60,156 nucleotides of DNA from positions 1 through 60,156 of the IMG/VR virus record IMGVR_UViG_3300010398_000003; one strand, given 5' to 3'. The position numbers were made by a program, and so were the translations under genes. Below, one piece after another: positions 14,852-54,929 of this stretch (the stretch's first letter is position 1; each line of letters opens with the position of its first letter). The notes beneath the pieces are model-generated. The model was given only the letters and a program-made list of their open reading frames with translations, was not told the DNA's origin and ran no database searches. Origin of the DNA: a virus.

Positions 14852-15544
14852 ATGACCAGCTATCTGATCGACGTGGCGTCGCCGTACCAGGACGGGATCG
14901 ACCTGGCCGAGGTGTTGGCGGCCGGGTTCACGCGGGTCAATGTCAAGATCAGTCAGGGCGACTGGTACACCAACCCGAACGCCCAGATGTGGATCACGCG
15001 GGCCCAACAGCTCGGCATGGGCGTGTCCACCTTCCACTGGCTGGACAACTCGGCGAGCGGCAAGGCCCAGGCCCAGTTCGCGCTCGGCCTGATGGATCGC
15101 TACGGCGTCCGGTACGGGGCCGTCCATCAGTGCGACTGCGAGGACACGAAGTCGCCGGCCACCTGGACGATTTGGCGCGACTACATGACCGAAGTCCAGC
15201 AGGGTCTGGGCCGATACGCGATCAACTACACGGGTCACTGGTGGTGGACGGCGGCCGGCCGCAACTGGAATGGCGCGTCGATCACCCCGTACCTCTGGGC
15301 GGCGCCGAACCATGGCTACGACATTGCGTACCCTGGCGACAGTTCGCCGGACTGGAACGCCGGCTACGGAGGGTGGGACCAGTACACGGCGCTCCAGTAC
15401 GCGGTCTCGCCGGTCTGGGGTGCGGGCGGCGGCGAGCTGTCGAAGACGGCGTGGCGGTCCCAGCCGGCCTGGGACGCGCTGACCGGGGTGGCGGCCTCGT
15501 CCGGCACCCGATCATCCAACTGGTGGCTCTGGGAGAACTCATGA
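14852..15544 (+). CDS. endolysin, GH25 muramidase domain
   Basis: AGGAGGGGGG RBS. LIDVASPYQDGIDL is the GH25-type IDVSxxQG signature, with a later HQCDCED acidic cluster. 230 aa. Confidence 0.8.
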   Translation: MTSYLIDVASPYQDGIDLAEVLAAGFTRVNVKISQGDWYTNPNAQMWITRAQQLGMGVSTFHWLDNSASGKAQAQFALGLMDRYGVRYGAVHQCDCEDTKSPATWTIWRDYMTEVQQGLGRYAINYTGHWWWTAAGRNWNGASITPYLWAAPNHGYDIAYPGDSSPDWNAGYGGWDQYTALQYAVSPVWGAGGGELSKTAWRSQPAWDALTGVAASSGTRSSNWWLWENS

Positions 15545-20715: not shown

Positions 20716-21191
20716 CGCCGCACCTCCACATCCAGCTCGGCGAGGATGGTCTCCACCCGGCCCCACCCGTCCACCCGGATGCCCCGGGTGGACGCGCGGT
20801 ACGCGTGGCCTGGTACGACTGCCATTGCCTGGGTCGTCCTCTGGTCGCTCTCCGGATGGACGAGCGTCACCGAGACGATGACCGGGGCCGCGAGCTGGGC
20901 CTTCAGTTGGCGGATCTTCTGCCTCAGCTCCTTGCGCGTGGGCCGGCGCCTCGGCGCGTCCGCCCCGTACTGGAGGCCGCCGCGCGTGACGCTGACCGGA
21001 GGCAGGAAGGCATCGGCGGGCGCGCACCATCCGCCGTCCGCGTGCACCGGCTCCTTTCGGATCTCCTCGTACCGCGTCAGAATCTTGACCAGGGTGTCGA
21101 CGACGAGGCTGCTTCGGCGCCTGCCGAAGATGAAGCCGACCGCCTCGTCCAGCATGTCGATCAACTCGGCCGGCACCTCGACGCTGATCAC
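20712..21191 (-). CDS. ribbon-helix-helix domain protein
   Basis: GTG 21191 overlaps the ERF stop after AGGAGGGG. The N-terminus VISVEVPAELIDMLDEAVGFIFGRRRSSLVVDTLVKIL fits a CopG/MetJ-type strand-helix-helix. Confidence 0.55.
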   Translation of the reverse strand: MISVEVPAELIDMLDEAVGFIFGRRRSSLVVDTLVKILTRYEEIRKEPVHADGGWCAPADAFLPPVSVTRGGLQYGADAPRRRPTRKELRQKIRQLKAQLAAPVIVSVTLVHPESDQRTTQAMAVVPGHAYRASTRGIRVDGWGRVETILAELDVEVRR

Positions 21192-22780
21192 TTCCCCTCC
21201 TTCAGGTAGAACCGACGGGCGGCCACCCCGGCGTAGGCGCGTTCGGCCAGCTTCGCATCCAGCTGGGGCTCGGCCTGCTGGCGGTCCTTGTTGACCAGCA
21301 GCGTGACGGCGTCCAGCTCCTCCATGGAGATGGCGGTCTCGGCCAGCCACGCCGCGAAGTTGAACAGGTTCAGGTGGACAGCCGGCAGACTACGCAGCAT
21401 CGCATCCAGCGCGGCGTGCTCGTCAGCGGACACCTCGCCGCGCTCGAACAGACCCAGCAGGTCGTCCATCAGGGCGGCGATCGACTTGCCATCGGTCAGC
21501 TCGGGCGAGCGGATCCGCGTCCGCGTGTCCAGATAGGCCACACTCGGCGTGCCGATCGTCGGAGGCCAGAACTCTGGGACCGGCTCGTCGTCGTAGTTCT
21601 CCATGGGCTCGTCCTGCTCGGGTAGCTCGTCCAGGGCCTCGGCGTTGTCCGCGTGCCCGGTACCGGGAAGCGGGCCCATCCTGGCCCGGTCCTCCTCGCG
21701 CTGGAGGGCACCCTGGCGCTCGGCCTGGACGGTGCGCAGCCGCTCGCCGGCCGCCGCGCTTACTCCGCCACCCTGAATGGCGTGGCTGATCCGCTTGTCC
21801 ACGTGGCGCAGGTCGTCGAACGTCCGGCACTCCACGATGGCCAGCTCCAGCTCCTCCGCCAGGGTGCCGTCGGCCGGCTTCCGGGTGGCCTCGGCGAGTA
21901 CCTGGCCGTGTCGGCTGTGCCGCTCAACGGGGCCGACGCCTTCGTGCGACCACGGCAACCGTGCCTCGCCGACCGCGCCCAAGGTCTTGTTCAGCGCTAC
22001 CCACTCGTCCCGGTTGCGCGGCGTCTCGATGATCTCGGCGAGCCGGGCGCCGAACCGGGCCGACATCTCCTCGGTGCGCCCCTCTGGCTCCATCCGCTCC
22101 CAGAACGCCGCCAGATCCTTCGGCTCGGCCCTGGCGATCCGGGCCTGGAAGTCACCCCGGTCGCGTTCCTCGCGCCGGCTCTCGGCCCGCTGGTGGCCCG
22201 CGCTGGCCGCGTCCGCGTCGTCGTCGTCCTCCGCCGGGGCGAGCCCCGTCACGGCCTGGAAGCAGTACCGCCGGGCATAGGTGATGTGCGAGCCGATCGT
22301 CTTCGGATCCGCCGTACCGGGTTTCGGCAGCGGCCAGAAGCCCCCATCCTCCTCGCCGGAGGTGTGTCGGAGGATGTAGGCGAGACCGAAACCCTCCGGC
22401 GTCATGGTCGGCTTGGCCGAGAAGCTTAGACCGTACCGGCCCAACATGCGCATGCCGACCCGGCTCACGTCGGCCAGGTTGGCGTACCGGTACCGGTAGC
22501 TGCGTTTGCCCTCCTTCGCCTCGATGTCCGCCTCGTCCGCCGCGATCACGTCGGGAAGCTGTGACTGGAACAGCGCCAGGGCGGCGGCGAGGGAGGCGGG
22601 GGACTCCGACAGCAGGACGCGGGGAGGGCCGGCTATCGCGCGCTTCAGCAGGTCAGCCAACTGCTCGTCTTCCGGCAGGCTGGCGGGATCGAGGACGACG
22701 GGGGTGGCGGGGCCGAACGTCGCGTCCAGCTCCTCTTCGGTGACCGGGATCTGGCGCCGGTCAGGTTGCGCTCGGGACAT
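21188..22780 (-). CDS. ERF-family single-strand annealing recombinase with long C-terminal extension
   Basis: YRYRYANLADVSRVGMRMLGRYGLSF and GSHITYARRYCFQAVTGLAPAEDDDD match the conserved ERF core. 530 aa. Confidence 0.8.
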   Translation of the reverse strand: MSRAQPDRRQIPVTEEELDATFGPATPVVLDPASLPEDEQLADLLKRAIAGPPRVLLSESPASLAAALALFQSQLPDVIAADEADIEAKEGKRSYRYRYANLADVSRVGMRMLGRYGLSFSAKPTMTPEGFGLAYILRHTSGEEDGGFWPLPKPGTADPKTIGSHITYARRYCFQAVTGLAPAEDDDDADAASAGHQRAESRREERDRGDFQARIARAEPKDLAAFWERMEPEGRTEEMSARFGARLAEIIETPRNRDEWVALNKTLGAVGEARLPWSHEGVGPVERHSRHGQVLAEATRKPADGTLAEELELAIVECRTFDDLRHVDKRISHAIQGGGVSAAAGERLRTVQAERQGALQREEDRARMGPLPGTGHADNAEALDELPEQDEPMENYDDEPVPEFWPPTIGTPSVAYLDTRTRIRSPELTDGKSIAALMDDLLGLFERGEVSADEHAALDAMLRSLPAVHLNLFNFAAWLAETAISMEELDAVTLLVNKDRQQAEPQLDAKLAERAYAGVAARRFYLKEGK

Positions 22781-27487: not shown

Positions 27488-28627
27488 ATGACCGACAACA
27501 TCACCGCCCCCGGCAACTTCGCCGGCACCGCGTGGGCCGACTACCAGCCCACCCAGGACCCCACCGTGGCCAACTGGGGCGGCAGCGACTACGACCGCAT
27601 CGAGAAGGGCATCACGGACGGCCTGGAGAAGACCGCCCAGGGCGCCTCCTTCGCGGCCGTCCGGGCCGGCGGCTGGCACCAGCTCGGCACCGTCTTCGAC
27701 CGCCCGGCCACCGCCGAGGAGCTGCTGGTCACCGCGAACGCCGACTACCCGGTGTTCCTGCGCCCCCTGTACGCCGGCATCGAGGAGGACTCCCAGGTGG
27801 GCACCGCGACCGTGCCGAACATGGCCTCGATCTGCCGGCCCGCCGCCGACGGGGGCGTGCAGGTGCTCGGCGTCGGCTCCAAGAACTACCAGCCGATCAG
27901 CAACCGCGAGGCGTTCGTCCAGCTCGGAGACGCCGTTGTGGACGTGGCCGAGCCCACCGCCGCCACCTGCGGTGTGCTGTATGGCGGTAAGCGCGCGTTC
28001 ATGTGCTGGCGGCTCCCGCAGGGCCTCATGGTCGGCGGCGTGGACGCCCACGAACTGTGGCTGCTGGTCTGCCACTCGCACGACCTGTCGCAGCCGCTGA
28101 TCGCCGCGATCACCCCGCTGCGCACCGTGTGCCAGAACACCGAGCGATACAACCTGCGCAACGTCGTCTCCCGCTGGACCATGAAGAAGACCCGCAACGC
28201 CAAGGTCCAGCTCCAGCAGGTCCGGGACGCCCTGAAGCTGTCCTGGGAGTACACCAACGAGCTGGACAAGATCGCTACCGAGCTGCTCAACACCCCCATG
28301 ACCAATGCCCGCTTCGAGGCGATCATCACCCAGGAGTTCGGCCCCGGTGAGGACGCCGGCAAGCGCGCCGAGAACGCCTGGGACGAGAAGCACACCAAGC
28401 TGATGGAGCTGTTCGCCGTCGCCGACACCCAGGCCAACATCCGGGGCACCGCGTGGGGCGCCGCCCAGGCCGTCGGCGAGTATCAGGACTGGATGACGAA
28501 GGCCATCCAGAAGGGCTGGGACAGCCCCGACGCGTACCGCTTCTGGCGCTCCGTCAGCGGCGAGAAGTCCACCCAGCAGCCCAAGGACGCCATGCTCCGC
28601 GCCGTGCGCGAGTACGCGGGCGTCTAA
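27488..28627 (+). CDS. DUF932-family protein
   Basis: 379 aa. SKNYQPISNREAF, GVLYGGKRAF, LLVCHSHDLSQPL and PLRTVCQNTERYNL match the DUF932 (phage/plasmid-related) conserved blocks. Confidence 0.7.
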   Translation: MTDNITAPGNFAGTAWADYQPTQDPTVANWGGSDYDRIEKGITDGLEKTAQGASFAAVRAGGWHQLGTVFDRPATAEELLVTANADYPVFLRPLYAGIEEDSQVGTATVPNMASICRPAADGGVQVLGVGSKNYQPISNREAFVQLGDAVVDVAEPTAATCGVLYGGKRAFMCWRLPQGLMVGGVDAHELWLLVCHSHDLSQPLIAAITPLRTVCQNTERYNLRNVVSRWTMKKTRNAKVQLQQVRDALKLSWEYTNELDKIATELLNTPMTNARFEAIITQEFGPGEDAGKRAENAWDEKHTKLMELFAVADTQANIRGTAWGAAQAVGEYQDWMTKAIQKGWDSPDAYRFWRSVSGEKSTQQPKDAMLRAVREYAGV

Positions 28628-29635: not shown

Positions 29636-30012
29636 GCGGATCCGAGATCCGGCGCGGCCGGGCGGCCGGCCCGAAGGTCCACGAGGACGTGTTGCCTATC
29701 GACGTGCCGCCGGCCGCCGCCCCGCCGTGGCCGGTCAAGAACAAGCTGTGGGCTGGGATCTCCACCTGGACCACGTACCGGGGCAAGCACCAGCTCTGTC
29801 ACCCTTGCGTCCTCGTCGTCCACGAGCGCGGCATCCAGGCCGCCCCGCCTCCCGCGCCGGCCACCCAGAAGCGCAAAGGACCCAACGGCGAAACGCTGTG
29901 CTGTGGACCGCACGCGGCCGAATGGCAGCGGATGGACGCCGAGGCCGCAAGGGCACGAGCCGACCGCGTCAGGCGGGTCGCCGAGCGGTCCAAGACCCGG
30001 ACCTTCCGATAG
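29632..30012 (+). CDS. hypothetical protein with Cys/His pairs
   Basis: ATG 29632 overlaps the upstream stop (ATGA). 126 aa. Contains LCHPC...LCCGPH. Confidence 0.5.
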   Translation: MSGSEIRRGRAAGPKVHEDVLPIDVPPAAAPPWPVKNKLWAGISTWTTYRGKHQLCHPCVLVVHERGIQAAPPPAPATQKRKGPNGETLCCGPHAAEWQRMDAEAARARADRVRRVAERSKTRTFR

Positions 30013-30275
30013 CACGCGAGGGTTGCGATCTCGCCGTAAACCACGCTAGGCTTCCGGCAGGTTCGAACCGAGGGCGCACTGAGCCGACAAGGCGAGGGAC
30101 GCGTACCCCGGGGCCACCACCGGGGTTGCCCGTAAGGTGGCGGAGGGCAAGCCGATCCAAGAGGGTCTCGGTGAGAGACCTACCCGGGGGGGCTGCGGCG
30201 CCCGGCTTGCCGGGACAGATGGACGGCTTCGCAACCGTCCTGCCCACAGGATCTGCGAGGGATCCGGCACGAGGA

Positions 30276-30348
30276 GCGTCGAAGGTCGGGCGGAACCGAC
30301 CACCGCTGAAGCAGGCGGAGACGCAGGGTTCGACTCCCCGCTGACGCA
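30276..30348 (+). ncRNA. tRNA-like cloverleaf b (non-canonical anticodon arm)
   Basis: Acceptor 30276-82 / 30341-47: 6 of 7 pairs, one of them G-T. D arm GTCG / CGAC with an 8-nt GG loop. T arm CAGGG-TTCGACT-CCCCG with one mismatch. The central arm has only 4 bp and an 8-nt loop TGAAGCAG with no U33-type geometry. Confidence 0.4.
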
Positions 30349-30450
30349 CGGGAACGCTTGACGCCCAGGCTGTGGTGATCGTGGCGACGACACTGACGGC
30401 TGAAAGAGCAGGAACCCGGAGAGTTCGCAGCGCAAAGCGGCGGTCCGGGA

Positions 30451-30524
30451 CGCACGGAAGCTCCAGGGAGAGCGCCGAGGGTGGGTAACTCTCGGAGGCC
30501 GGGGTTCGAGTCCCTACCGTGCAC
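30451..30524 (+). ncRNA. tRNA-like cloverleaf c (extended central hairpin)
   Basis: Acceptor: 6 of 7 pairs. D arm GCTC-CAGGGA-GAGC. T arm CGGGG-TTCGAGT-CCCTA. The central arm CCGAG / CTCGG extends to 7-8 bp, with a loop of 5-7 nt that does not fit an anticodon loop. Confidence 0.4.
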
Positions 30525-30744
30525 GAGCGGCAACGCACGGGAAAGCCCCCAGGTCCGGGACGCCGGGCAGCCTGGTCGAGGCCGGTACCGGTGACACCAG
30601 CTCGGAGCCCACGTCGACGTCCGTGGGGTGTGTCCGGTCCACCACCGCGAGGCGGGTACCGCGTAGCGGATGCGCATGGGGGGACTGGCTTCGATGCCAC
30701 GGACATGCGGAGCGGGACAGCCCTAGCAGAGGCCCCCGCGCCAT

Positions 30745-30804
30745 GGGGCGGTAGCCGGCTGGGACCGGTACTCCGGAGTCCAGGTTCGAATCCTGGCCGC
30801 CCCT
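30745..30804 (+). ncRNA. 60-nt minimal tRNA-like element d
   Basis: Perfect 7-bp acceptor GGGGCGG / CCGCCCC. Perfect T arm CCAGG-TTCGAAT-CCTGG. D-like arm CCGG-CTGGGA-CCGG. The anticodon arm is replaced by the 10-nt palindrome ACTCCGGAGT. No encoded CCA. Confidence 0.5.
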
Positions 30805-31133
30805 CGTAGGACCGGCAGGCCGCGCTTCGGCGCGCGAGGTCTGGGGCTGGGGAATCTGCTCACCCATCCTCGGTAAGAACGCGGCGCGATACGGGCGAGG
30901 CCGCGCACGTCCGGCTAGGGATGAGGCCGGACGCGGAGAGGTCGAGCGGAGCGTCCTGCTGCTCGACCTCTCCACCCGGAGTTCCCGGGCTTGCCCGGGG
31001 GGACTTGCCGGCTGGACCAGATGCAACCGGTGGCCGGCGGACAGCGGCCCGTGATCTACAGGCTGCCGGCCGGCCGGTACCCCAGCGCGGGCATGGGTAT
31101 CGGCCTCGGACATCCACCTGGAGAGGAGTGGAG

Positions 31134-31586
31134 ATGGGGAAGCCCGTCACCCGCGAGAACGCCGTCAGGACGCAGGCCACCCTGCCGGACGAACTGTCGG
31201 GCCCCGGTCAACAGACTCCGCACGGACCCCAGGGCCCGAAGCGGCTCACCCGTGCCGACCGGCGCGCCTACGAGCGGATCCGTGCTCGGCGCAAGCTCCG
31301 TCCGCAGTACGCGGGCGAGACCGGCCGCCAGCGGCGGGAACGGTGGGAGCAGGAGCGACATCAGGAGTTGGCGCGCGCCGGCCACCGCCTCGGCGTCGGT
31401 GAGATGTTCACCGTGGGTGACCGGAAGCGGATCGTGATCGCGCTCAACCAGGAGGCCGCCGAACGGGCTGGGTTGACCAACGCCCAGTGGGCCTGCATGA
31501 ACCGGAAGCAGCGGGCCGAGACGCTCGATCGGGTACGCCACGAGGCCCTGTCCGAGTACATCGCGGCCACCGGGAGCACCTGGTGA
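31134..31586 (+). CDS. hypothetical basic protein
   Basis: ATG 31134 after GGAGAGGAGTGGAG, in frame within ORF 30921..31586. 150 aa, Arg/Glu-rich and helical. Confidence 0.6.
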   Translation: MGKPVTRENAVRTQATLPDELSGPGQQTPHGPQGPKRLTRADRRAYERIRARRKLRPQYAGETGRQRRERWEQERHQELARAGHRLGVGEMFTVGDRKRIVIALNQEAAERAGLTNAQWACMNRKQRAETLDRVRHEALSEYIAATGSTW

Positions 31587-31804
31587 GGATCCTTCACTAC
31601 CCGAGCCCGCCCGACGTGGGCACCATCGTCGGCCCTGGCCTGGATGGCCGGTGGTGGATGGTCGTTGGTCAGGACGGGCAGGACACCCAGCTGGAACAGG
31701 CCGGCTTCTGGTCCCTCATGGACGCGCCGCTGGCCATCACCGCGCCGCGTTCGATGACCGAGTTCGACTACCACGCGATGCGTTCGAGGAGGAGGTTCCG
31801 GTGA
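31583..31804 (+). CDS. hypothetical small protein
   Basis: GTG 31583 overlaps the upstream stop (GTGA). 73 aa. Confidence 0.5.
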   Translation: MRILHYPSPPDVGTIVGPGLDGRWWMVVGQDGQDTQLEQAGFWSLMDAPLAITAPRSMTEFDYHAMRSRRRFR

Positions 31805-32424
31805 GGTACTGGTACGACTTCGAGTTCCTGGAGGACGGCCGGACCATCGACCCGATCTCCGTCGGCGTGGTCGCGGAGGACGGCCGCGAGTATTACGCGG
31901 TGTGGGACAACATCAACGACGAGCCGCTGTACTCACGCATCTGCGAGCATCGCTGGCTGGTGAAGAACGTGGTGCCGCACCTGCCGCTCGTACCGCAGCC
32001 GGACGGTGAGCTGGTCCACCTGGAAGGCGCACAGCGGAAGGTCCTCGGCGCCACGGTGCCCTACTACTACGAGAAGACCCGATGGGCGCTGGACATGGAC
32101 AGCACGGTCGTCAAGCCGCGCCGGCTGATCCGCGCCGAGCTGCGGGGGTTCTTCCTGGCCGACGAGGAGCCGGAGCTGTGGGCGTGGTACGCGGCCTACG
32201 ACCACGTGGCGCTCGCCCAGCTCTGGCGGCCGATGGCCGATCTCCCGGCCAACCTGCCGATGTATACGAACGATCTACGGCAGACGGTCCGCCAGGTAGG
32301 CATCCGTGAGCAGGACCTCCCGACCCTCCCGCCCGGCGCCGCGCACCACCCGCTTTCCGACGCCCACAACCTGCGGGATCGGTTCTACTACGTCGCCGAG
32401 TACTGCGACGGGCGACAGTTGTGA
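31801..32424 (+). CDS. DEDDh 3'-5' exonuclease (DnaQ-like fold)
   Basis: GTG 31801 overlaps the upstream stop. YDFEFLEDGRTIDPISVGVVAEDGREYYAV is Exo I. WAWYAAYDHVAL is Exo II. HHPLSDAHNL is Exo III of the H-x4-D type. Confidence 0.75.
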   Translation: MRYWYDFEFLEDGRTIDPISVGVVAEDGREYYAVWDNINDEPLYSRICEHRWLVKNVVPHLPLVPQPDGELVHLEGAQRKVLGATVPYYYEKTRWALDMDSTVVKPRRLIRAELRGFFLADEEPELWAWYAAYDHVALAQLWRPMADLPANLPMYTNDLRQTVRQVGIREQDLPTLPPGAAHHPLSDAHNLRDRFYYVAEYCDGRQL

Positions 32425-41334: not shown

Positions 41335-42828
41335 ATGGCGCTCAGCCCCCAGGACGAGCTGGCCGGCATCCCGCCGGAACATCAGGCCGCCTGGCTGGCG
41401 TCGCAGCCCGACTGGGCGATCCAGGACATGGTGCGTGGCGAATGGTGGTGGACCGGCCGGCCGGAGCAGCAACCACCCCCCGGTGACTGGTTCGTCTGGC
41501 TGCTGCTGTCCGGCCGGGGCTTCGGCAAGACCCGCACCGCCGCCGAGTGGCTGGTCGATCGGATGCTGCGGTATCCGGTGGATACGACTGGCTTCCGCAC
41601 CGAGTGGGGGCTGGTCGCCGAAGACCTCCCCGACGCGATGGCCATGTGCGTGCGCGGTCCGGCCGGTATCGCCAGGGTGCTGGAGCGCCGGCTGGGCCCG
41701 GAGAAGCGCCACGCCCGGGATGCCTCGGGGAAGTGGCGGATCGGCCAGGTCGAAGGCAAGCCGAAGATCTTCTTGGACGACGGCCAGATCGTGCACGTCG
41801 AAGGTGCCAAGGATGAGGACGTGGCGCGCGGGTTCAACTGGGCCGGCGCCTGGCTGGATGAGTTCGCGAAGTGGAAGCACCCTGACGGCTCCTGGGCGGA
41901 GGGCATCCTCCCGTCGCTTCGCCAGGACATCCCCGGCGACTACCCGCGCGTCATCGTGGCCACCACGCCGAAGCTGGTCGTCCAGCTGGTCGAGTGGCGG
42001 CGCACCACGGACGGCTCGGTGGCCCTCACCACCGGGTCTACCTACGACAATGCGGCCAACCTGTCCCCGAAGATGTTGGCCGCCTTCCACCGCAAGTACC
42101 ACGGCACCCGACTCGGGCGCCAGGAGCTACACGGCGAGCTGATCGAGGAGATCGAGGGCGCCCTGTGGCGCCTGGACTGGATCGAACGCTGGCGGGTCAA
42201 GAGCATCCCCGCCATGGTGCAGGTCGACATCGGCATGGACCCGGCCTCCACCGGAGTGGGCGACGAGACGGGCCTCATTGCCGCCGGGCGGGGCGTCGAT
42301 GGCATCGACTACGTGCTCGGTGACTGGTCGAAGCAGATCGCCGGCAACGCGGCGGCCCGGCGTGCCTGGGAGATGTACATCGCCTACGGGGCCAGCTGGC
42401 TGATCGTCGAGGACAACGTGGCCAAGAAGTGGCTGTGGGACGTACTGGCCAGGGCCTATGACGACATGCGCAAGGAGGGTCTGTTCCCGTCTGGCGGTTC
42501 GCCGCCGATCCGTACCGAGACGGCGAAGGTGGGCAAGAAGCTACGCGCGGAGCCGGTGGCCGCCCGGTACGAGCAGGGATTCAACAACAATAGTGGGCTG
42601 GTGCGGCACGCCGCGAAGCTGGGCGACCTGGAGACACAGATGGTCTCGTGGGTACCGCAGGAAGCCCCCGAGTCCCCGGACCGGGTGGATGCCCTCGTGT
42701 ACGCCATGCTCCACCTGGGCAAGCTGGATCGCCGGCACGCCGAGGCCGCCGACCCCGGCAAGGCCACCCTCCCGCGCACCGAGCTGTCGCCGCTCGCCAC
42801 CGCGCTCCCGGCGCCCTACGGGCGGTAG
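41335..42828 (+). CDS. terL: terminase large subunit
   Basis: 497 aa. Walker A-like LLLSGRGFGKTRTAAEW. Later WLDEFAKW (Walker B/coupling) and nuclease-half acidic motifs (IGMDPASTG, LIVEDNVAKKW). Located upstream of the portal gene. Confidence 0.9.
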   Translation: MALSPQDELAGIPPEHQAAWLASQPDWAIQDMVRGEWWWTGRPEQQPPPGDWFVWLLLSGRGFGKTRTAAEWLVDRMLRYPVDTTGFRTEWGLVAEDLPDAMAMCVRGPAGIARVLERRLGPEKRHARDASGKWRIGQVEGKPKIFLDDGQIVHVEGAKDEDVARGFNWAGAWLDEFAKWKHPDGSWAEGILPSLRQDIPGDYPRVIVATTPKLVVQLVEWRRTTDGSVALTTGSTYDNAANLSPKMLAAFHRKYHGTRLGRQELHGELIEEIEGALWRLDWIERWRVKSIPAMVQVDIGMDPASTGVGDETGLIAAGRGVDGIDYVLGDWSKQIAGNAAARRAWEMYIAYGASWLIVEDNVAKKWLWDVLARAYDDMRKEGLFPSGGSPPIRTETAKVGKKLRAEPVAARYEQGFNNNSGLVRHAAKLGDLETQMVSWVPQEAPESPDRVDALVYAMLHLGKLDRRHAEAADPGKATLPRTELSPLATALPAPYGR

Positions 42829-45377: not shown

Positions 45378-46267
45378 CGCAGCCCCAGACGCAGCAACTC
45401 CCGGCCCAGCCTCAGGAGCATCCGGTCGCGGCCACCGTCACCACCGCCGTGGCGCTCGACGCGATCCGGCGCGGCCTGCCCGACCCGTTCCTGCCACTGC
45501 GATGGGCCCGGCTCGCTAGCGTCGTGCGGGCGGAACGGCGTGTGCTCGGCCAGTACCGCGCCGCGATCGCCGACTGGACGCCGGCCGTGGCCCGGCGTGT
45601 CGTCCAGCATGGTGCCATCGATCCGCATGCCGTCCGGTTCGCCGCCCGGGGATTCGAGACCGCCGCCCGGCCGATCGTAGAGATCGAGCTGCGCGAGGTG
45701 TTCGAGACTGCCTTTCGCGAGGCCAGCGAGGCCGACTGGACGCCGGACGCTGACGCCTACCTGAAGCGGTACCTGGACGGTGCCTGGAACCGGCTGCGCG
45801 CCACCCCTGACCGCGTCTACAGCCTGATCACGCGCGAGGTGGCAACCGCCAGCCGCAACGGAGACGACATGGACACTCTGGCCGCCAAGATCGATGGCTT
45901 GTTCGCCGAGCACGACGTACCTACCTGGACGAACCGGGGGCTCACCGTGGCCCGCACCGAGGCCATCTCCGCGCACAACGCCGGCAACTTCGCCTCCTAC
46001 GTGGCCATGGCGAAGCAGGACGGCGGCGCCTGGGACAAGGTCTGGCTCGCCACCGAAGACGAGCGGACGCGGCCCACGCACGTGCGCGCCGACCTCCAGC
46101 GGGTGCCACTGCACGCCCCGTTCACCGTCGGCGGATTCCCCGGCATGTTCCCCGGCGACCCGACGCTACCCGCCCGGGAAGTGATCAACTGCCGGTGCGC
46201 GCCGCTCGCGGTCCGGGCCGGCGAGAAGATCGACCTGTCGCACCGCCAGTTCAAGGAGGCCGCGTGA
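45374..46267 (+). CDS. MuF-like (SPP1 gp7 family) head morphogenesis protein
   Basis: GTG 45374 overlaps the portal stop. GLTVARTEAISAHNAGNF...ATEDERTRPTHVRADLQRVPL...VINCRCAP is the Phage_Mu_F signature. Confidence 0.85.
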   Translation: MTQPQTQQLPAQPQEHPVAATVTTAVALDAIRRGLPDPFLPLRWARLASVVRAERRVLGQYRAAIADWTPAVARRVVQHGAIDPHAVRFAARGFETAARPIVEIELREVFETAFREASEADWTPDADAYLKRYLDGAWNRLRATPDRVYSLITREVATASRNGDDMDTLAAKIDGLFAEHDVPTWTNRGLTVARTEAISAHNAGNFASYVAMAKQDGGAWDKVWLATEDERTRPTHVRADLQRVPLHAPFTVGGFPGMFPGDPTLPAREVINCRCAPLAVRAGEKIDLSHRQFKEAA

Positions 46268-49200
46268 CCGCGTCGCTTGACCTCTACGCGCTCACCGCGC
46301 ACACGCCGGAGGGGTCGCGGGTGGTACTCGACCTGTACGCGGTCGGGGCGCAGGCCGGCGCGCTGCTCGCTGCCACCGTCCCCGTCGTCCAGCTGGACGA
46401 GACCGACCTGTACGGGCTCGACGTCGACAACTGGCTGTACGGGCTCGTCCACTTCGAGCACCAGGGCTGCGAGACCGGTGAGTACTGCCGTAACCCCCTG
46501 CATCCGGGTCCCTGCAAGGGCTGGAAGCACATGCTGCACAGCGTGGCGCCCGGCGCGTACCACGCCTACGAGCAGCAGAGGGTCGCGAAGCTGAACGAGG
46601 CGCGCCAGGCTCGGATAGCGGAGCTGAAGGCCGCCGGCAAGGCGGTCCCGAAGCATCTGCTGAAGCCGATCACCTACCAGCAGGTGCCCACCGCGCCGGC
46701 CGGGATCCCGTTCAAGCCACCCACTCCGAAGGAAGCCGAGGCGGCCCTCCCGACTACCGCGAAGGAGATCGCCCAGAAGATCGCGATGAAGCATGCTGAC
46801 ATCGCAGCCGCCCAGGCCAAGGCGAAGAAGGCGCTCCCCGGCCAGGGCGCGGCGGGATTCGCCACTCCGAAGGATGTCGATACCTACCTGCACGACTTCG
46901 AAGCGGACCCCAACCTCGCGGCGATGCCGGCGCTGAGCAAGGCCGTGTACAGCAAAAAGCTAGCCCAGATTGTCGATGACCCCAAGGCCACGCCCGAGCA
47001 GGTGGCGAAGGCCAAAGCGATCCTGGAGAAGATGGGCGCACCGAAGGCTGCTCCGCCTGTCGGGTCGTCGGCCAGCAAGGCCGCGAAGCTTGCAGCCGGT
47101 CAGGCCGGCAGCGTGATGATGCATAATGCCAAGCTCGGGCCGCCTGACAAGCCGATCATCCAGGCCGCCCTGGAGGCGCTGCACGATCACTCGAAGACGC
47201 CGGCCGCGCGCCTGGCCGCGTATGGCAGCCTGGAGCCGAAGCACGTTCAGGCCCTACCGCCGGACGTGGCCGAGGGGATCAGGAAGGATCTTGAGCACCT
47301 GGCGGGTGGTGGGTCCCACCTGGGCGGTGCGTCTATCGGGGCTAAGGCGGCCGATATCCACGGCAAGCTGTTCCCGCCGACCGCCGGGCCGGCCGGGAAG
47401 GTGTCGGGACCGCTCGCGCATCCGGACATGATGGCTGTGTCTGACCTGGCCAAGATGCCTAACGTCAGCCCCGCCCAGTTGGCGAAGGCGTTGGAGAAGC
47501 CTGGGGTGTCGAAGACGGAGCTGGATAAGCTACCGAATCCCACCAAGTTCAAGATCATGGATGCCATCCAGGCGGCGTACCAGAAGGAGCCGGCAGGTAC
47601 ATCCGATGGCTCGACCCTGGCATATATGCACGCGAAGCTGTTCGGGGAGCTGCCGCCGGCCAAGCTGCCTGCTCAGCGGGTGCAGTCCTCGGTCTCTGGT
47701 GGTGAGCCACACCCGGACATGGCGCATGCGCTGGAGATGTTGGCGGATTACCCGTCCCTCACCAAGGGGATCAATGCCCTAGATAAGACCACTATCACGA
47801 AGGCCGAGTATGCCAAGCTGGCCCCCGAGGATCAGCAGCTGATCAAGGATTTCCTGGCTGAGCACATCGGTGATGCGCCGGCCAGCGTCGATCACCTCGC
47901 CTACAAGCTGGGTATCGATAAGCTTGACTTGATCACGCCGACGGGCGAGAAGCCCAAGGTGGGCGCGGCCCAGGCCGCTCTGGCGGCGATCGACGCTGGT
48001 AAGCCGATGCTATCCAAGATCAAGAAGATCACGCCAGCTGAGTACGAGGCCCTTTCGGGAGCCGACCAGAAGAAGATCCACGACGTGCTGAAGGAGGAAC
48101 ACGACGCGGGGCACCCGAAGGTCGCCGCCGAGATTGCGGCCGGGCTGGGCCCGAAGGCGGTCATGAACCACACGCTGGCCGTGACCGGGTACACGCCGAC
48201 GAAGCGGGCGGCCCCCGGTGAGCCACACCCCGCGCTCCTCGACGCCCTGTTGTCGCTGAAGTCGAACAGTTCCAAGTCGATGGCGCTCAGCCACCTGGAC
48301 GACCCAGGCGTGACGGCGGCGCAGTTCGATGCGCTGCCGGAGGATGACCGTCAGCAGATCATGGACTTCCTCCACGAGGCAGCCCAGGCTAAGGGGCCGG
48401 CGACCAAGGCGAAGGCGAAGACTGTCGCGGCGAAGCTCGGCATCTCGTTGGCCGGCGAGGAGCCGGTACACGAGCGACCGTCGTCAACCAAGGGCGCGGC
48501 CAAGGTGGGTGGCGACGAGCTACTCCCCGGTTCGCCGGCGCATGTGATAGCCGCCCACGCTCTGGCCACCGGACTGACCTACGGCACCGCAACGAAGAAG
48601 CTGGCCGCCTACGGCAAGCTGTCCGCCGAGGAGTTCCACTCCCTGCCCGAGAACGCCCAGAAGGCCATCGTCTCCGACCTGAAGCAGGCCCATGACAAGT
48701 TCCTGGACCCGAAGAAGAAGAACCAGGTGCTGAACCTGCTGGAGAAGCTGAAGACCTCCGAGGCGATCCTGGAGACCCCGTCCGGTGGCGTCACCCCGCA
48801 GGGGAAGATGATCGCCAAGGCGCACGCGGCGATCCTGCCGCTCCTCGGCAACATGGCCGCACCGGTCACTCAGCATGAGCTGGAGCAGAACTACAGCAGT
48901 CCCGGGGCCAGTCTGCCTGACGAGGCGATGGCCCTCGCCAACGCCTGGTACGCCCATCACGTCCTCGATGGCGGCGTCGGTACCGCGCTCAGCCCGGACG
49001 ATCACGCCAAGGTGCTCCAGAAGGCCGAGGACGAGATCCTGCACATGCTCCAGACGGGCACGACGAAGCCGCCCAGCGACGGCGTCCTGGAGAACGCCGA
49101 CATCGCCGACAAGAACCTGCACGGCGCCAATAAGGCGGCCATGAAGGCGTCCCTCCTGAAGCAGGCGGCGAACAAGCAGACTGGGGCCGGCGGTAGCAGC

Positions 49201-50238
49201 CACGGGGGCGGCACTGCCGCGAAGGTCGAGGAGGCGGCGAAGAGCGCCGGGGTGCCCAAGGCTGTCAAGGACGAGGTGCTGGGCGCATTCAAGATGCACA
49301 CCCAGGGTGCCCAGCTGAAGGACCCGCCCGAGCAGGCGTACCAGGCGCTGCTGAACGTGGCGGCGGCGGCCAGTAAGAAGCCGGGCTGGCCCGACCTGTC
49401 GCTGCGCCAGATCATGCAGATCATCGACGAGCAGCACGCCAAGAACCTGGGCGTCACGAATCAGGGCCTGCTCGAACAGAAGATGGTCACCTGGCTCGGC
49501 ACTGCCGAGGGCAAAGCGGCGGCTGCCAACATGAAGCCGGACGCTGCGACGGTCAAGAAGCTGACCGGCGGCGTCGAGCTGCCCAAGGGCGTCAAGCTGA
49601 AGGCCGGCCAGAAGGTTCAGAACGTTGGCGGTCCCGGCGGGTACAAGAAGACCGACGGGCCGTTCCATGGCTACACCTCGGACCAGGCCATCGCCGAGCG
49701 CGACGCCTACCAGGCGCAGACCGGTCAGAAGTGGACCAAGGCTCAGCACGACGCCCTGTATTCCTACACGTACGCATCCGGCTCGATGAACAACTACCTG
49801 CGCAACGAGGCCGGCGCAGACACCTCGACCAAACAGAAGATTATCGATGCCCAGTCGGCGATGCAGCCGCTCCAGCACGACCATCTGCTCGGGCGCGGCA
49901 CCGGGTGGAGCGCGGTGCCGCCCGAGTTCCGGGGCTGGCCCGAAGCGCAGGGAATGGTCGGTAAGACCATCTCCGACCCGGCGTTCCTGTCCACGTCGGT
50001 AACTGGATCGCATCACGGCTTTTCTGGCCACGTGGTGTGGATCATCGAAGCGCCCGCCGGCACGATGGGCGCGTTCGTGGATGATTTCAGCAAGTTCCAT
50101 GGAGAGGCGGAGATGCTGCTCGCCGCCGGGACCCAGCTGAAGATCCTGGGTGTCGAGCAGTACGGCGATGGCATCCGCGTCCGGGCGCGCGTCGTATCTG
50201 GCTCGAAGACGGCGATCTCGACGGGGAAGAAGATATGA
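46264..50238 (+). CDS. giant virion-module protein with C-terminal R-S-ExE ADP-ribosyltransferase domain
   Basis: GTG 46264 overlaps the MuF stop (GTGA). 1,324 aa. ART triad: LLGRG (Arg codon 49894-49896), FLSTS (49990-49998), GEAEM (50104-50112). The ART domain spans roughly 49672-50199. There are six degenerate internal repeats. Confidence 0.85.
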   Translation: MTASLDLYALTAHTPEGSRVVLDLYAVGAQAGALLAATVPVVQLDETDLYGLDVDNWLYGLVHFEHQGCETGEYCRNPLHPGPCKGWKHMLHSVAPGAYHAYEQQRVAKLNEARQARIAELKAAGKAVPKHLLKPITYQQVPTAPAGIPFKPPTPKEAEAALPTTAKEIAQKIAMKHADIAAAQAKAKKALPGQGAAGFATPKDVDTYLHDFEADPNLAAMPALSKAVYSKKLAQIVDDPKATPEQVAKAKAILEKMGAPKAAPPVGSSASKAAKLAAGQAGSVMMHNAKLGPPDKPIIQAALEALHDHSKTPAARLAAYGSLEPKHVQALPPDVAEGIRKDLEHLAGGGSHLGGASIGAKAADIHGKLFPPTAGPAGKVSGPLAHPDMMAVSDLAKMPNVSPAQLAKALEKPGVSKTELDKLPNPTKFKIMDAIQAAYQKEPAGTSDGSTLAYMHAKLFGELPPAKLPAQRVQSSVSGGEPHPDMAHALEMLADYPSLTKGINALDKTTITKAEYAKLAPEDQQLIKDFLAEHIGDAPASVDHLAYKLGIDKLDLITPTGEKPKVGAAQAALAAIDAGKPMLSKIKKITPAEYEALSGADQKKIHDVLKEEHDAGHPKVAAEIAAGLGPKAVMNHTLAVTGYTPTKRAAPGEPHPALLDALLSLKSNSSKSMALSHLDDPGVTAAQFDALPEDDRQQIMDFLHEAAQAKGPATKAKAKTVAAKLGISLAGEEPVHERPSSTKGAAKVGGDELLPGSPAHVIAAHALATGLTYGTATKKLAAYGKLSAEEFHSLPENAQKAIVSDLKQAHDKFLDPKKKNQVLNLLEKLKTSEAILETPSGGVTPQGKMIAKAHAAILPLLGNMAAPVTQHELEQNYSSPGASLPDEAMALANAWYAHHVLDGGVGTALSPDDHAKVLQKAEDEILHMLQTGTTKPPSDGVLENADIADKNLHGANKAAMKASLLKQAANKQTGAGGSSHGGGTAAKVEEAAKSAGVPKAVKDEVLGAFKMHTQGAQLKDPPEQAYQALLNVAAAASKKPGWPDLSLRQIMQIIDEQHAKNLGVTNQGLLEQKMVTWLGTAEGKAAAANMKPDAATVKKLTGGVELPKGVKLKAGQKVQNVGGPGGYKKTDGPFHGYTSDQAIAERDAYQAQTGQKWTKAQHDALYSYTYASGSMNNYLRNEAGADTSTKQKIIDAQSAMQPLQHDHLLGRGTGWSAVPPEFRGWPEAQGMVGKTISDPAFLSTSVTGSHHGFSGHVVWIIEAPAGTMGAFVDDFSKFHGEAEMLLAAGTQLKILGVEQYGDGIRVRARVVSGSKTAISTGKKI
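47140..48702 (+). repeat. six tandem degenerate protein repeats (84-104 aa units) inside the giant gene
   Basis: Each unit has (G)EPHPxxxxALxxL followed by (S/T)xxE(F/Y)xxLPxxxxxxIxxxLxxxH. Examples: TPAARLAAYGSLEPKHVQALPPDVAEGIRKDLEH, KKLAAYGKLSAEEFHSLPENAQKAIVSDLKQAH, ITKAEYAKLAPEDQQLIKDFLAEH, VTAAQFDALPEDDRQQIMDFLHE. Confidence 0.7.
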
Positions 50239-53585: not shown

Positions 53586-53864
53586 TCAGGCGGACGCGCG
53601 GCGGCACGGTCGCGTACCGCAGTGCGCGCAGAAGCCGGTCAGGCTAGCTGGCTCTGTCAGCTCGTACATCCCATCTGGGATGTGCTCCGAGTACCGGGAC
53701 GGCGATTCACGGGGGCTTCCGTCCCGGTCAAGGTAGTAGTTCCCGCTGTGAAGGCGCAGCACGGTGATCCCACGTGCGCGGGATCGCGTCACGTCCCCGT
53801 CGATCACTGTCGCGAGCCCGGCGGCGATTCGGACTAGGCTGCCATTCGGTGGGCGGTCCTTCAC
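53586..53864 (-). CDS. hypothetical protein, last gene of the island
   Basis: GTG 53864 overlaps the glycohydrolase stop (GTGA), in frame within ORF 53586..54071. 92 aa. C-terminal CAHCGTRPC. Confidence 0.5.
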   Translation of the reverse strand: MKDRPPNGSLVRIAAGLATVIDGDVTRSRARGITVLRLHSGNYYLDRDGSPRESPSRYSEHIPDGMYELTEPASLTGFCAHCGTRPCRRASA

Positions 53865-54856: not shown

Positions 54857-54929
54857 CTCGGTCTCCTCTCCTGAGACTCCAGTGCGGCGCCCGGTCCACC
54901 CCTCCGGGACCGGGCGCCGCACAAGGGCG

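Follow-up and report, generated by a model that had tools for sequence, protein, structure and literature searches.

A tandem array of tRNA-derived modules in a 1.1-kb gene-free segment of an uncultured high-GC phage genome

Results

The gene-free segment and its surroundings

The window analysed here is a 60,156-nt stretch of DNA from an uncultured high-GC phage (IMG/VR record IMGVR_UViG_3300010398_000003), and it contains a gene-free segment of 1.1 kb at 30013-31133. The segment is bounded by the stop codon of the upstream gene at 30012 and by the ATG of the next gene at 31134, which carries the ribosome-binding site (RBS) GGAGAGGAG, and it is the largest non-coding gap in the gene map of this tightly packed genome. 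An earlier note on this DNA had described the segment as coding-free, and this was borne out: the GC content per codon position is flat over 30013-31133 (maximum minus minimum mostly <=0.2, compared with 0.35-0.6 in the flanking genes), and Pfam matched none of the seven ORFs tested inside or mostly inside the segment, one of which is a 245-aa minus-strand ORF that a public pipeline had called as a gene. A hidden protein gene is ruled out by the flat frame plot together with the lack of Pfam matches among the internal ORFs. The contig derives from runs SRR5215831 / ERZ27264337, and its two public copies are identical to the window over the whole segment.

The array described below lies on the + strand, which is the strand of the flanking early genes. 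A Pfam scan covered 20 window proteins, 132-1347 aa in length, out of a gene set whose other members are mostly small, and it revealed a gene for an Rv2179c-like 3'-5' exoribonuclease 0.7 kb downstream of the array. A consensus scan of the + strand detected neither promoters nor intrinsic terminators, which is weak evidence in a high-GC actinobacterial system, and the segment contains neither iterons nor an AT-rich stretch. Its features are as follows, with the basis of each assignment in brackets.

30013-30075, + strand: 5' spacer past the upstream stop codon (read from sequence; folding z 0.05)
30017-30035, + strand: degenerate T-arm-like hairpin GCGAG-GGTTGCGAT-CTCGC (sequence)
30060-30069, + strand: palindrome GGTTCGAACC (sequence)
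30075-30265, + strand: hairpin cluster A (z = -2.5; 1/200 shuffles folds as well)
30106-30125, + strand: cluster A helix CCCCGG/CCGGGG (sequence)
30163-30181, + strand: cluster A helix GGGUCUC/GAGACCU (sequence)
30201-30214, + strand: cluster A hairpin CCCGG-CUUG-CCGGG (sequence)
30221-30240, + strand: cluster A T-arm-like minihelix GGACGG-CUUCGCAA-CCGUCC (T-loop-like motif count)
30249-30265, + strand: cluster A helix GGAUC/GAUCC (sequence)
30276-30349, + strand: tRNA-like module 2 (unconstrained minimum free energy (MFE) fold is a cloverleaf, z -2.33)
30350-30450, + strand: spacer with a stable hairpin and the first 5'-half repeat copy (repeat families D3 and D5; fold)
30451-30524, + strand: tRNA-like module 3 (MFE fold is a cloverleaf, z -1.71)
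30525-30744, + strand: spacer holding a degenerate minihelix and, at 30535, the third copy of the 5'-half repeat (motif enrichment; folding z about 0 to +0.9)
30673-30678/30704-30709, + strand: 6-bp stem CGCAUG/CAUGCG of the degenerate minihelix, around UGGC-UUCGAU-GCCA at 30686-30699 (sequence)
30745-30803, + strand: module 4, a 59-nt 'mini-tRNA' (the sole window module passing a strict scan for a T arm and a 7/7 acceptor stem)
30808-31081, + strand: hairpin cluster B (z -3.8 to -3.9 on the + strand, -4.3 to -5.6 on the - strand; folds)
30821-30834, + strand: cluster B hairpin C(UUCG)G (sequence)
around 30909-30932, + strand: cluster B helix GUCCGGC/GCCGGAC (fold)
30935-30973, + strand: cluster B perfect 13-bp stem (inverted repeat I10)
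30984-30999, + strand: cluster B hairpin CCCGGG-CUUG-CCCGGG (sequence)
31004-31081, + strand: cluster B GC-rich helices (folds)
31120-31136, + strand: RBS GGAGAGGAG and ATG of the downstream 150-aa gene, marking the 3' limit of the non-coding segment

Besides its three tRNA-shaped modules, the array contains two or more degenerate acceptor/T-arm minihelices, and a cluster of very stable hairpins brackets it on either side. The three T-loop modules reported in the earlier note were confirmed and greatly exceed what chance would give: over both strands of the 60-kb window GGTTCGANTCC is present three times (0.19 expected), each time on the + strand within the segment, and the looser motif G[GC]TTCG[AC] occurs six times on the + strand of the segment, compared with 0.57 per 1121 nt elsewhere in the window. 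A fourth GGTTCGA, at 30060, is part of the palindrome GGTTCGAACC, around which both a T stem and an acceptor stem are absent. The helices that the note had singled out were found in place (CGCGC-TTCG-GCGCG at 30821-30834, CCCGG-CTTG-CCGGG at 30201-30214, CCCGGG-CTTG-CCCGGG at 30984-30999, and the perfect 13-bp stem formed by 30935-30947 and 30961-30973). Its description of the segment as saturated with helices applies to the two ends and not to the middle: in 150-nt windows compared with dinucleotide shuffles, 30075-30224 folds better than the shuffles (z -2.5), as does 30825-31049 (-3.8 to -3.9 on the + strand and -4.3 to -5.6 on the - strand), whereas 30225-30824 folds no better than they do (z between -1.3 and +0.9). 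No U-tract terminator was seen on the + strand of cluster B.

Anatomy of the tRNA-shaped modules

In module 4 both the 7-bp acceptor stem (GGGGCGG/CCGCCCC) and the T arm (CCAGG-UUCGAAU-CCUGG) are perfect. The module also has U8-A9 and a D arm GCCG-GCUGGGAC-CGGU, and a 10-nt palindromic linker, ACUCCGGAGU, replaces the anticodon arm and variable loop; beyond the missing arm it bears no lesion. The 24-mer made up of its T arm and 3' acceptor strand is identical to that of tRNA-Met(CAT) genes in six genomes. Its match to Rfam tRNA-Sec is weak (19.3 bits), and its MFE structure is not unique (z -1.1). When IMG/VR was scanned with the module 4 T arm, the only phage recovered was an unrelated one (L101) with an expanded tRNA-like element.

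Module 2 has a 6-bp acceptor stem (GCGUCG/UGACGC), and an AA connector stands instead of U8-N9. Its D stem is 6 bp long (GGUCGG/CCGACC), and the anticodon arm CCGCU-GAAGCA-GGCGG has a loop of 6 nt; if it is read with the 7-nt loop CUGAAGC instead, the stem contains two mismatches. There is a single A.C mismatch in the T arm GCAGGG-UUCGACU-CCCCGC, and the 3' end is GC-AC. ARAGORN saw it only at -ps80, as Phe(gaa), and its best Rfam match in the tRNA clan is tRNA-Sec at 13.8 bits. Module 3 starts with C followed by the acceptor strand GCACGG, which pairs with CCGUGC, and then ends in AC, so that the acceptor can be read either as topped by a C.A mismatch or as 6 bp long; it has the same AA connector, and its D arm is GCUC-CAGGGA-GAGC. 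The anticodon stem (CCGAGGG/CUCUCGG) is 7 bp long and bears the loop UGGGUAA, in which G occupies the U33 position, and the T arm CGGGG-UUCGAGU-CCCUA has one C.A mismatch and one G.U pair. Module 3 too was seen by ARAGORN only at -ps80, and it had no Rfam tRNA match at E<=10. Against R1, a covariance model whose only training sequences were tRNA-like modules from other phages, modules 2 and 3 scored 30.5 bits (E 0.0013) and 28.7 bits (E 0.0031), respectively; they are the only significant R1 matches in the window, and both are full length. The 5'-half repeat CGCACGG(G)AA is present in three copies, at 30345, 30451 and 30535. These copies have no matching 3' strands, and like the degenerate T-arm hairpins they resemble what recombination and decay leave behind.

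A T arm of the form G53-UUCRANY-C61 (with one T-stem mismatch each in modules 2 and 3), a D loop with GG and a closing acceptor stem are present in all three modules. They retain the upper half and elbow of a tRNA (acceptor stem, T arm with the GGUUCGANUCC loop, D loop GG), and a canonical anticodon arm (5-bp stem, 7-nt loop, U33, purine 37) is found in none of modules 2-4: the anticodon part is missing in module 4, elongated with a loop without U33 in module 3, and irregular in module 2. The modules are almost certainly unable to read codons. Two marks of a tRNA pseudogene cluster, tRNA ancestry and disabling lesions, are seen here, the former in the tRNA-Met identity of module 4 and the latter among the modules.

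Comparison with known RNA classes

At gathering thresholds Rfam gave no match in the segment, and at E<=10 none to GOLLD, ROOL, tmRNA, YrlA or introns; nothing credible was obtained for riboswitches either, and the weak matches to CC3664, Scr4115, asX6 and miRNAs are generic GC-rich hairpins. The best matches in the tRNA clan (tRNA-Sec, 19.3 and 13.8 bits) compare with a gathering score of 47. ARAGORN found no tRNA gene at default thresholds, and its tmRNA search, at default or -ps80, found nothing, in agreement with Rfam. The suggestion in the earlier note of tRNA-like parts or a tRNA-mimic, and possibly a new RNA, fits the three tRNA-shaped modules. These lie 100-220 nt apart, with the hairpin clusters at both ends; the segment is a row of tRNA-derived modules and not one large RNA. 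These tRNA-derived RNA genes stand in tandem on the + strand, and the detectors used recognise none of them as a canonical tRNA.

Ordinary phage tRNA clusters resemble the array in their tandem tRNA-derived units on one strand of a non-coding gap between early genes, and in their canonical T loop and D loop with GG. The array differs from them in that its units fail the default ARAGORN and Rfam tRNA thresholds, its anticodon arms are missing or non-canonical, U8 is replaced in two units and stem ends are mismatched. In phage T4, 'species 1 and 2' (rnaC, rnaD) are small stable RNAs that are encoded in the tRNA cluster and matured by the tRNA machinery. They may be comparable to the array as small RNAs among phage tRNA genes, but T4 has eight working tRNAs beside them and the window has none.

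Arrays in distant phages

No close relative of the phage was found in any collection searched. Neither blastn with the segment nor megablast with 20 kb matched any cultured phage, blastn of the segment against about 100 fetched loci yielded T-arm-sized matches only, the two flanking proteins have no relatives at all, and the downstream 150-aa gene has no homologue. Relatives of the Rv2179c-like exonuclease are at most 55% identical, and most of their loci lack an array; intact tRNA arrays are located near the related exonuclease gene in L020 (7 tRNAs) and L032.

Six contigs of distant uncultured phages (L006, L011, L085, L102, L103 and L105, hereafter the L006 group) have in common a 1.1-1.3-kb non-coding array of tRNA-like modules, of a type not described in the literature searched. 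In one module type, M3, the acceptor and T stems are 97% paired over 7 sequences, with changes on both sides at 7/11 pairs and a covariation score reached by 0/500 shuffles (model and counts cover the acceptor and T stems only, since MAFFT misregistered the D and anticodon arms). Its 'anticodon loop' reads CCCCAAG, GCAA, UCGAAAAC, CUAAUCC or CCUGGU; other modules of the group carry inserts of roughly 35-130 nt, and modules are gained and lost independently among the arrays. Directly 5' of M3 lies a conserved leader of about 72 nt (GGUAACAGGAA..GGUGAUGAGC..UACCCGACC..GAAGAGCC), in which GUGAUGA...YGAAG flanks a covarying stem. Considered as a possible hammerhead or k-turn, the leader had no Rfam match, and it is absent upstream of 30451, where there is only a faint resemblance (GGUGAUCG...CUGAAAGAGC).

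The L006-group arrays resemble that of the window in being gene-free over 1.1-1.3 kb on the strand of the flanking genes, in mixing tRNA-sized, shortened (62 nt) and expanded modules, and in keeping the acceptor, D and T arms with the anticodon part replaced. Some of their modules start with (C)GC and end with GCAC, as do modules 2 and 3. The M3 pattern, ends C-GC....GC-AC with a non-decoding loop on a 4-6-bp 'anticodon' stem, recurs in the window, where module 3 reads CGCACGG...CCGUGCAC (with a 7-bp stem) and module 2 likewise ends in GCAC. There is, however, no sequence homology between these arrays and the window, and the L006-group stems are cleaner than those of modules 2 and 3. Modules 2 and 3 reach 30.5 and 28.7 bits against the M3 model, compared with 25-40 bits for ordinary tRNAs and 59-76 bits for members (n = 7); since this model fails to tell the two modules from ordinary tRNAs, a single origin with the M3 family was rejected. 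As they score as generic tRNAs and not as M3 members, the support from other phages is by analogy and not by homology.

Discussion

Proposed non-decoding tRNA mimics

The best reading of the locus, at slightly below even odds (about 0.45), is an array of non-decoding tRNA mimics, with a decaying tRNA gene cluster as its main rival. The array would be transcribed as part of the rightward operon, host RNase P would cut the 5' sides of the modules, and RNase Z or exonucleases together with the CCA-adding enzyme would trim their 3' sides. The products of 59-75 nt may then act as tRNA mimics and not as adaptors, displaying the top half of a tRNA to a tRNA-binding partner. Their likeliest role, conjectural as it is, would be to act as a sponge or decoy, drawing off host factors by which the acceptor ends or elbows of tRNAs are sensed or attacked; the RNAs might instead tether such factors in the fashion of Y RNAs. 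The hairpin clusters could shield the neighbouring mRNA ends after excision or terminate transcription. The size of the gap, the largest in the gene map, argues for mimics, as does the existence of actinobacterial toxins that modify tRNA acceptor ends, e.g., MenT3 (PMC11541572). Further points in their favour are the non-coding character of the segment, the non-random T-loop motifs on a single strand, the cloverleaf folds, extra stem pairs and R1 scores of modules 2 and 3, the flawless remaining arms of module 4, and the precedents in the L006 group and in L090, a distant phage with a Ro60 gene and Y-RNA-like units. The shuffle-like folding of 30225-30824, the flaws of modules 2 and 3 (T-stem and stem-end mismatches, AA for U8-N9), the orphan 5'-half repeats and degenerate T-arm hairpins, the lack of any homologue of the segment in the collections searched, the generic tRNA-like scores of the window modules, and the failure to find a promoter, partner protein or tRNA-related enzyme beside the array argue against them.

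Alternative explanations

Rather less probable, and the strongest of the alternatives, is a decaying tRNA gene cluster, in which ancestral tRNAs (Met-like, perhaps Phe-GAA and Thr-GGU) were broken and left undeleted, with products that have no role; function would have been lost via deletions, insertions and unequal recombination. It accords with the lack of tRNAs by default ARAGORN or Rfam, with the Phe(gaa) and Thr(ggt) calls (with mismatches) of relaxed ARAGORN, with module 4 as the top half of a tRNA-Met minus the anticodon arm, with the orphan 5'-half repeats and degenerate T-arm hairpins, and with the intact tRNA arrays near the same exonuclease gene in the distant L020 and L032. Fragments of tRNA genes are also common across prokaryotic genomes, and such fragments and pseudogenes are, like the array units, partial tRNA-like sequences that tRNA finders miss or misclassify (PMC9897764). 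Module 4 is nevertheless a complete top half with both acceptor strands, unlike such fragments, and the array units lie on one strand and not at an integration junction. Decay would also leave 1.1 kb of junk, which is unusual for so tightly packed a genome, and it does not account for a module 4 that is lesion-free except for the missing arm. In modules 2 and 3 the cloverleaf fold persists and stem pairs were gained (the 6-bp D stem and the 7-bp anticodon stem), which goes beyond what simple decay yields, and in another phage lineage non-decoding arrays persist with compensatory changes.

The modules might instead be an RNA-processing or insulation cassette, serving only as RNase P/RNase Z cut signals in a long early transcript with the excised RNAs as by-products, and the hairpin clusters would stabilise the new mRNA ends or terminate transcription. 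tRNA punctuation and MALAT1-mascRNA are precedents, and RNase P recognises the acceptor stem and T arm, which are the only well-kept parts of the modules. The array is also placed between two co-oriented gene blocks, with better-than-chance folding limited to the two clusters, one just after the upstream gene and one just before the downstream gene. We regard this as improbable: one module would suffice, so that at least three over 530 nt are excessive, and a U-tract terminator and a promoter were both undetected.

The Y-RNA-like idea of the earlier note proved a good lead because L090, a distant phage whose exonuclease is 54% identical, has a Ro60 gene and Y-RNA-like repeats in a comparable place, the Ro60 gene following a 1.15-kb array of about 8 tandem Y-RNA-like units; L015 has Ro60 and two YrlA-like RNAs. 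YrlA-like sequences have been reported in 22 bacteriophages (Chen et al. 2014, PMC4201824), Y RNAs carry tRNA-like T and D arms, and Yrn1 of D. radiodurans has these arms in tRNA order with a 6-nt 'anticodon' loop (PMC4201824). Both YrlA and Yrn1 are similar to the window modules as non-decoding RNAs with tRNA-like T and D arms. The phage might, on this basis, supply only the RNA, which would tether a host-encoded Ro60 (Rsr) to an exoribonuclease; the Rv2179c-like exoribonuclease gene downstream is in keeping with this. The precedent stands and the idea fails in the window itself, which makes this explanation still more improbable than the cassette. YrlA genes lie no more than about 4 kb from a Ro60 (TROVE) gene that shares their strand (PMC4201824). 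In the 60-kb window no Ro60 was found by tblastn with the L090 Ro60, nor a TROVE match among the 20 scanned proteins, and dependence on a Ro60 of the window was rejected on this ground. The YrlA model RF02553 has no match there at E<=10 (L090 scores 32.7 bits and L011 25.1 bits). The arm order is that of tRNA, with D before T, and not that of YrlA (5' stem, T arm, acceptor-like hairpin, D arm, 3' stem), and the modules have no long terminal stem extension for Ro binding. One sequence, GUCGAAG at 30278-30284, fits the motif GNCGAAN0-1G at the acceptor/connector junction of module 2; a single 7-nt match of this kind could be due to chance.

That the segment forms one structured RNA of about 1.1 kb, with T-loops and hairpins as domains of a single fold, was suggested in the earlier note by its likeness to GOLLD and ROOL, which also occur in phages, measure several hundred nt and often lie beside tRNA genes. 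Size, phage context, tRNA-like elements and several long-range complementarities of 13-24 nt that the global MFE uses are consistent with it. The proposal did not survive and is very unlikely: no Rfam model for GOLLD, ROOL or any large RNA matches (for the first two, even at E<=10), the anatomy is modular with self-closing tRNA-like units, the central 600 nt are no stabler than shuffled sequence, long-range pairs of 71-92% complementarity are expected at 70% GC, and in the arrays of other phages modules are gained and lost independently. Equally unlikely is an element acting as DNA (a packaging site, a replication origin, or an attP that includes the 3' portion of a tRNA gene of the host), for which the 24-nt identity of module 4 to cellular tRNA-Met genes and hairpin z-scores equally strong on the minus and plus strands might speak, but the Pfam scan of the 20 window proteins (132-1347 aa) revealed no integrase, module 4 has a 5' acceptor strand and D arm that an attP core does not need, the T-loop motifs all have one orientation, and iterons and an AT-rich stretch are absent.

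Implications

The reading as non-decoding mimics may extend beyond this locus. It is conceivable, if doubtful, that some actinobacterial phages, this one included, encode a class of tRNA 'top half' small RNAs, undescribed in the literature searched, as kilobase arrays in which the acceptor, T and D arms are under selection. The anticodon domain of such RNAs would be deleted, capped by a tetraloop or swapped for inserts that can reach about 130 nt. The tRNA machinery would mature these RNAs, and they could be decoys or sponges for host factors of immunity or stress that recognise the acceptor end or elbow of a tRNA, or alternatively scaffolds with variable cargo hairpins. The window would then represent a Ro60-independent member.

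Why phages carry tRNAs is debated, the two main ideas being codon supply and escape from tRNA-cleaving defences (PMC10264068). What the units described here keep of a tRNA is recognised by proteins and by RNase P, and what they lack is the codon-reading part. Codon supply cannot explain a locus of such units, which would point to tRNA shape alone having a role. That selection can maintain non-decoding units is shown by the arrays of the other uncultured phages, which also provide a sequence set for testing the tRNA-mimic idea. For annotation, kilobase 'gaps' in high-GC phage genomes can conceal tRNA-derived genes missed by standard finders, and gene callers may fill such gaps with false ORFs, here with the 245-aa call on the wrong strand.

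Genome setting and the gene-free segment

The window is phage-like, with a GC content of 68.6%, and the following genes were recognized in it:

14852-15544, GH25 lysin
21188-22780, minus strand, ERF recombinase
27488-28627, DUF932 protein
31801-32424 by the public gene call (Pfam match obtained on the ORF 31651-32424), Rv2179c-like 3'-5' exonuclease
41335-42828, large terminase

Two public metagenome contigs of ~60 kb, from a single sample, are identical to the window, and its conserved proteins show at most 36% identity to those of cultured actinobacterial phages; the phage is, for practical purposes, a singleton. Separate genes (46195-50238 and 53861-54922, minus strand) encode a 1347-aa protein with a C-terminal ADP-ribosyltransferase toxin domain (PF03496) and an ADP-ribosylglycohydrolase (PF03747), which could be an injected toxin and its reversing enzyme.

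The longest stretch without genes in our own gene map of the window extends from 30013 to 31133, between the stop of the upstream gene (30012) and the start of the downstream gene (31134, with a good RBS); for neither flanking gene were any relatives found. The earlier note had described the segment as coding-free, and this was confirmed: codon-position GC showed no periodicity across it (both flanks carry the strong third-position bias of the genome), and a Pfam search of the tested internal ORFs, including a 245-aa minus-strand ORF of the public pipeline, yielded no match. This public call (29969-30706) runs antisense across the tRNA-like array and is almost certainly false, because GC is even over the codon positions there. 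The locus itself is genuine and out of the ordinary.

The individual hairpins named from the sequence alone were found in place, and the claim that hairpins are denser than expected by chance held, against dinucleotide shuffles, for 30075-30224 (folding z -2.5) and 30825-31049 (z about -3.9 on the plus strand, down to -5.6 on the minus strand), but not for the 600 nt between them, which fold no better than the shuffles. The strongest part of that reading proved to be the T-loop modules: GGTTCGANTCC occurs three times in the 60 kb (both strands) against 0.19 expected, all three copies lying on the plus strand within the segment, and the plus strand carries six copies of the looser motif G[GC]TTCG[AC], for which ~0.6 are expected.

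tRNA-like modules of the segment

Three tRNA-shaped units were delimited:

30276-30349, plus strand, module 2: 6-bp acceptor stem, AA connector, 6-bp D stem, anticodon stem of 5 bp closing a 6-nt loop, a single A.C mismatch in the T arm
30451-30524, plus strand, module 3: 6-bp acceptor stem with a C.A pair on top, AA connector, normal D arm, anticodon stem of 7 bp closing a UGGGUAA loop (position 33 is G), a single mismatch in the T arm
30745-30803, plus strand, module 4: 59 nt, flawless 7-bp acceptor stem, U8-A9, flawless T arm

ARAGORN at default settings called no tRNA in the segment; with thresholds lowered to 80%, modules 2 and 3 emerged, and both adopt a cloverleaf by unconstrained minimum-energy folding (z -2.3 and -1.7, respectively). 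Rfam at gathering thresholds gave no match in the segment, and a sensitive scan returned only weak tRNA-Sec matches over two units. The segment is outside every Rfam family. Of the families proposed for checking (GOLLD, ROOL, tmRNA, YrlA and introns) none matched even in the sensitive scan. The segment is not a GOLLD/ROOL-type RNA, and the resemblance to these two suggested earlier was not borne out.

In module 4, the D arm has the usual GCUGGGA-type loop and a 10-nt palindromic linker replaces the anticodon arm and variable loop. Its T arm and 3' acceptor strand share a 24-nt identity with tRNA-Met(CAT) genes of six cellular genomes, in one of which (a Solirubrobacteraceae MAG) the 5' acceptor strand is also the same. 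Two further hairpins (30221-30240 and 30673-30709) resemble degraded acceptor/T-arm minihelices. The 5' acceptor strand and connector of module 3, CGCACGG(G)AA, is present in three copies (30345-30357, 30451-30461 and 30535-30546), only one of which has a matching 3' strand (30517-30523); the triplicate could have been left behind by unequal recombination or could offer alternative pairing partners.

When the window was searched with a covariance model trained solely on tRNA-like modules of other phages, modules 2 and 3 were the only significant matches, both full length (E 0.0013 and 0.0031). The segment is therefore an array of tRNA-derived units on one strand. Because the anticodon arm departs from the canonical form, probably none of the units is able to decode. 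The segment belongs with the tRNA-derived non-coding RNA loci of phages, its nearest described relatives being Y-RNA-like mimics; full-text literature searches found no description of arrays of anticodon-less tRNA mimics of this kind.

Arrays in other phages

As the segment has no homologue, we turned to 80 viral loci in which a relative of the nearby exonuclease is encoded (42-50% identity). Most contained nothing comparable and a few had ordinary tRNA clusters, and two (L006 and L011) have in common a 1.1-1.3-kb segment, homologous between them and free of genes, that consists of tRNA-like modules. Four more contigs (L085, L102, L103 and L105) were added by pattern scans for a conserved 72-nt element. 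The element and the adjoining tRNA-like unit are located as follows:

L006, 2462-2610
L011, 2384-2532
L085, 872-1019
L102, 3590-3722
L103, 2092-2230, minus strand
L105, 5000-5132

The ~72-nt element (GGUAACAGGAA-CGGUGAUGAGC-..-UACCCGACC-..-GAAGAGCC) is in every case followed by a tRNA-like unit whose loop is non-decoding, and its fold is a hairpin whose GAUGA/GAAGA internal loop surrounds a covarying stem, GCYG/CRGY. Rfam gave no match, and the element appears to represent an undescribed family of RNAs from uncultured high-GC phages.

Some modules of this group look ordinary; others retain an acceptor, a D and a T arm with one of several differences (a 6-nt anticodon loop, a D-loop insert of ~35 nt, a shortened 62-nt form, or inserts of ~75, 115 or 130 nt replacing the anticodon loop). 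The L006 array had no match in cultured phages. The module type 3' of the 72-nt leader, M3, is present in all six contigs, and a similar unit without the leader in L029. Across these seven sequences pairing in the acceptor and T stems reaches 97%, and 7 of 11 pairs are changed on both sides; the covariation score was reached by none of 500 shuffles, and the signal was lost when partner columns were slid. The 'anticodon loop' reads CCCCAAG (twice), a GCAA tetraloop (twice), UCGAAAAC, CUAAUCC or CCUGGU. Since the stems covary while this loop is non-decoding and variable, there is good evidence that selection maintains non-decoding tRNA-shaped RNAs in this phage group. Modules 2 and 3 of the window have (C)GC...GCAC ends in common with M3; however, they lack the leader and score as generic tRNAs rather than as M3 members, and we therefore take the relationship as an analogy.

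Two more loci combine Ro60 with Y-RNA-like RNAs. In a distant phage (L090; exonuclease 54% identical), a Ro60/TROVE gene stands behind 1.15 kb of Y-RNA-like units, and in L015 (7470-9624) Ro60 has two YrlA-like RNAs upstream:

L090, 3520-4660, Y-RNA-like array of ~8 tandem units
L090, 4668-6317, Ro60 (TROVE and vWA)
L015, 8005-9624, Ro60

The L090 units start with GGGTCGA-N7-8-CGGTTAYC and end with CACACATCC; against the YrlA model of Rfam, only one of them attains 32.7 bits. An Acb2/Tad1-like gene lies 3' of Ro60. In the L015 RNAs, GCGAAGCGCAG is followed by a T arm, a hairpin and a D arm. Arrays of tandem tRNA mimics thus occur repeatedly, and in more than one form, among phages with this exonuclease.

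Possible maintenance and role

Our preferred reading, to which we assign a probability of about 0.45, is that the products of the window array are kept as tRNA mimics engaging a tRNA-binding partner. The array would be co-transcribed with the early operon and its units cut out by RNase P together with the enzymes of 3'-end processing. These enzymes are not known to require more than the acceptor/T-arm stack, which is preserved in the window units. In M. smegmatis, YrlA, with a 7-bp acceptor-like stem, is reported to be cleaved by RNase P and to receive CCA (Chen et al., PMC4201824). The role that we consider most plausible, speculatively, is a sponge for host factors acting on tRNA acceptor ends; actinobacterial toxins with such targets exist, e.g., MenT3 (PMC11541572).

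The main rival, a former tRNA cluster in plain decay, is favoured by the mismatches in the modules, by the half-repeats that lack a partner strand and by the hairpins that have degenerated. Against it stand the top half of module 4, which is intact, the additional base pairs of modules 2 and 3, the size of the gap in so tightly packed a genome and the precedent set by covarying M3 units in other phages; we rate it somewhat less probable than the mimic reading. A processing-only cassette, a Y RNA dependent on host Ro60, a single large RNA and a DNA-level site are each unlikely.

Further tRNA-like elements and exonuclease neighbours

Isolated tRNA-like units of 80-210 nt, whose acceptor and T stems are perfect (GGTGGGG...CCCCACC; GGCGGGG...CCCCGCC), also occur, in L006 and L011 just downstream of the exonuclease gene and outside the main array:

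L006, 5639-5775
L011, about 5576-5785
L085, 2470-2549

An unrelated phage contig of lower GC (L101) contains an expanded tRNA-like element at 5762-5890 that ARAGORN does not call, combining GGGGCG as 5' strand, a stretch that resembles a D arm, a ~75-nt insert and the 3' end CCGCCCC-GCCA; its T arm is that of module 4. In a Streptosporangium prophage-like region (L089, 6557-8594) and a Logan contig (L093, 8001-9436), no more than ~0.7 kb separates the Rv2179c-like exonuclease gene from a gene for an RNA ligase (PF09414), and in the Logan contig the two genes are immediate neighbours, which hints at an RNA-end repair pair.
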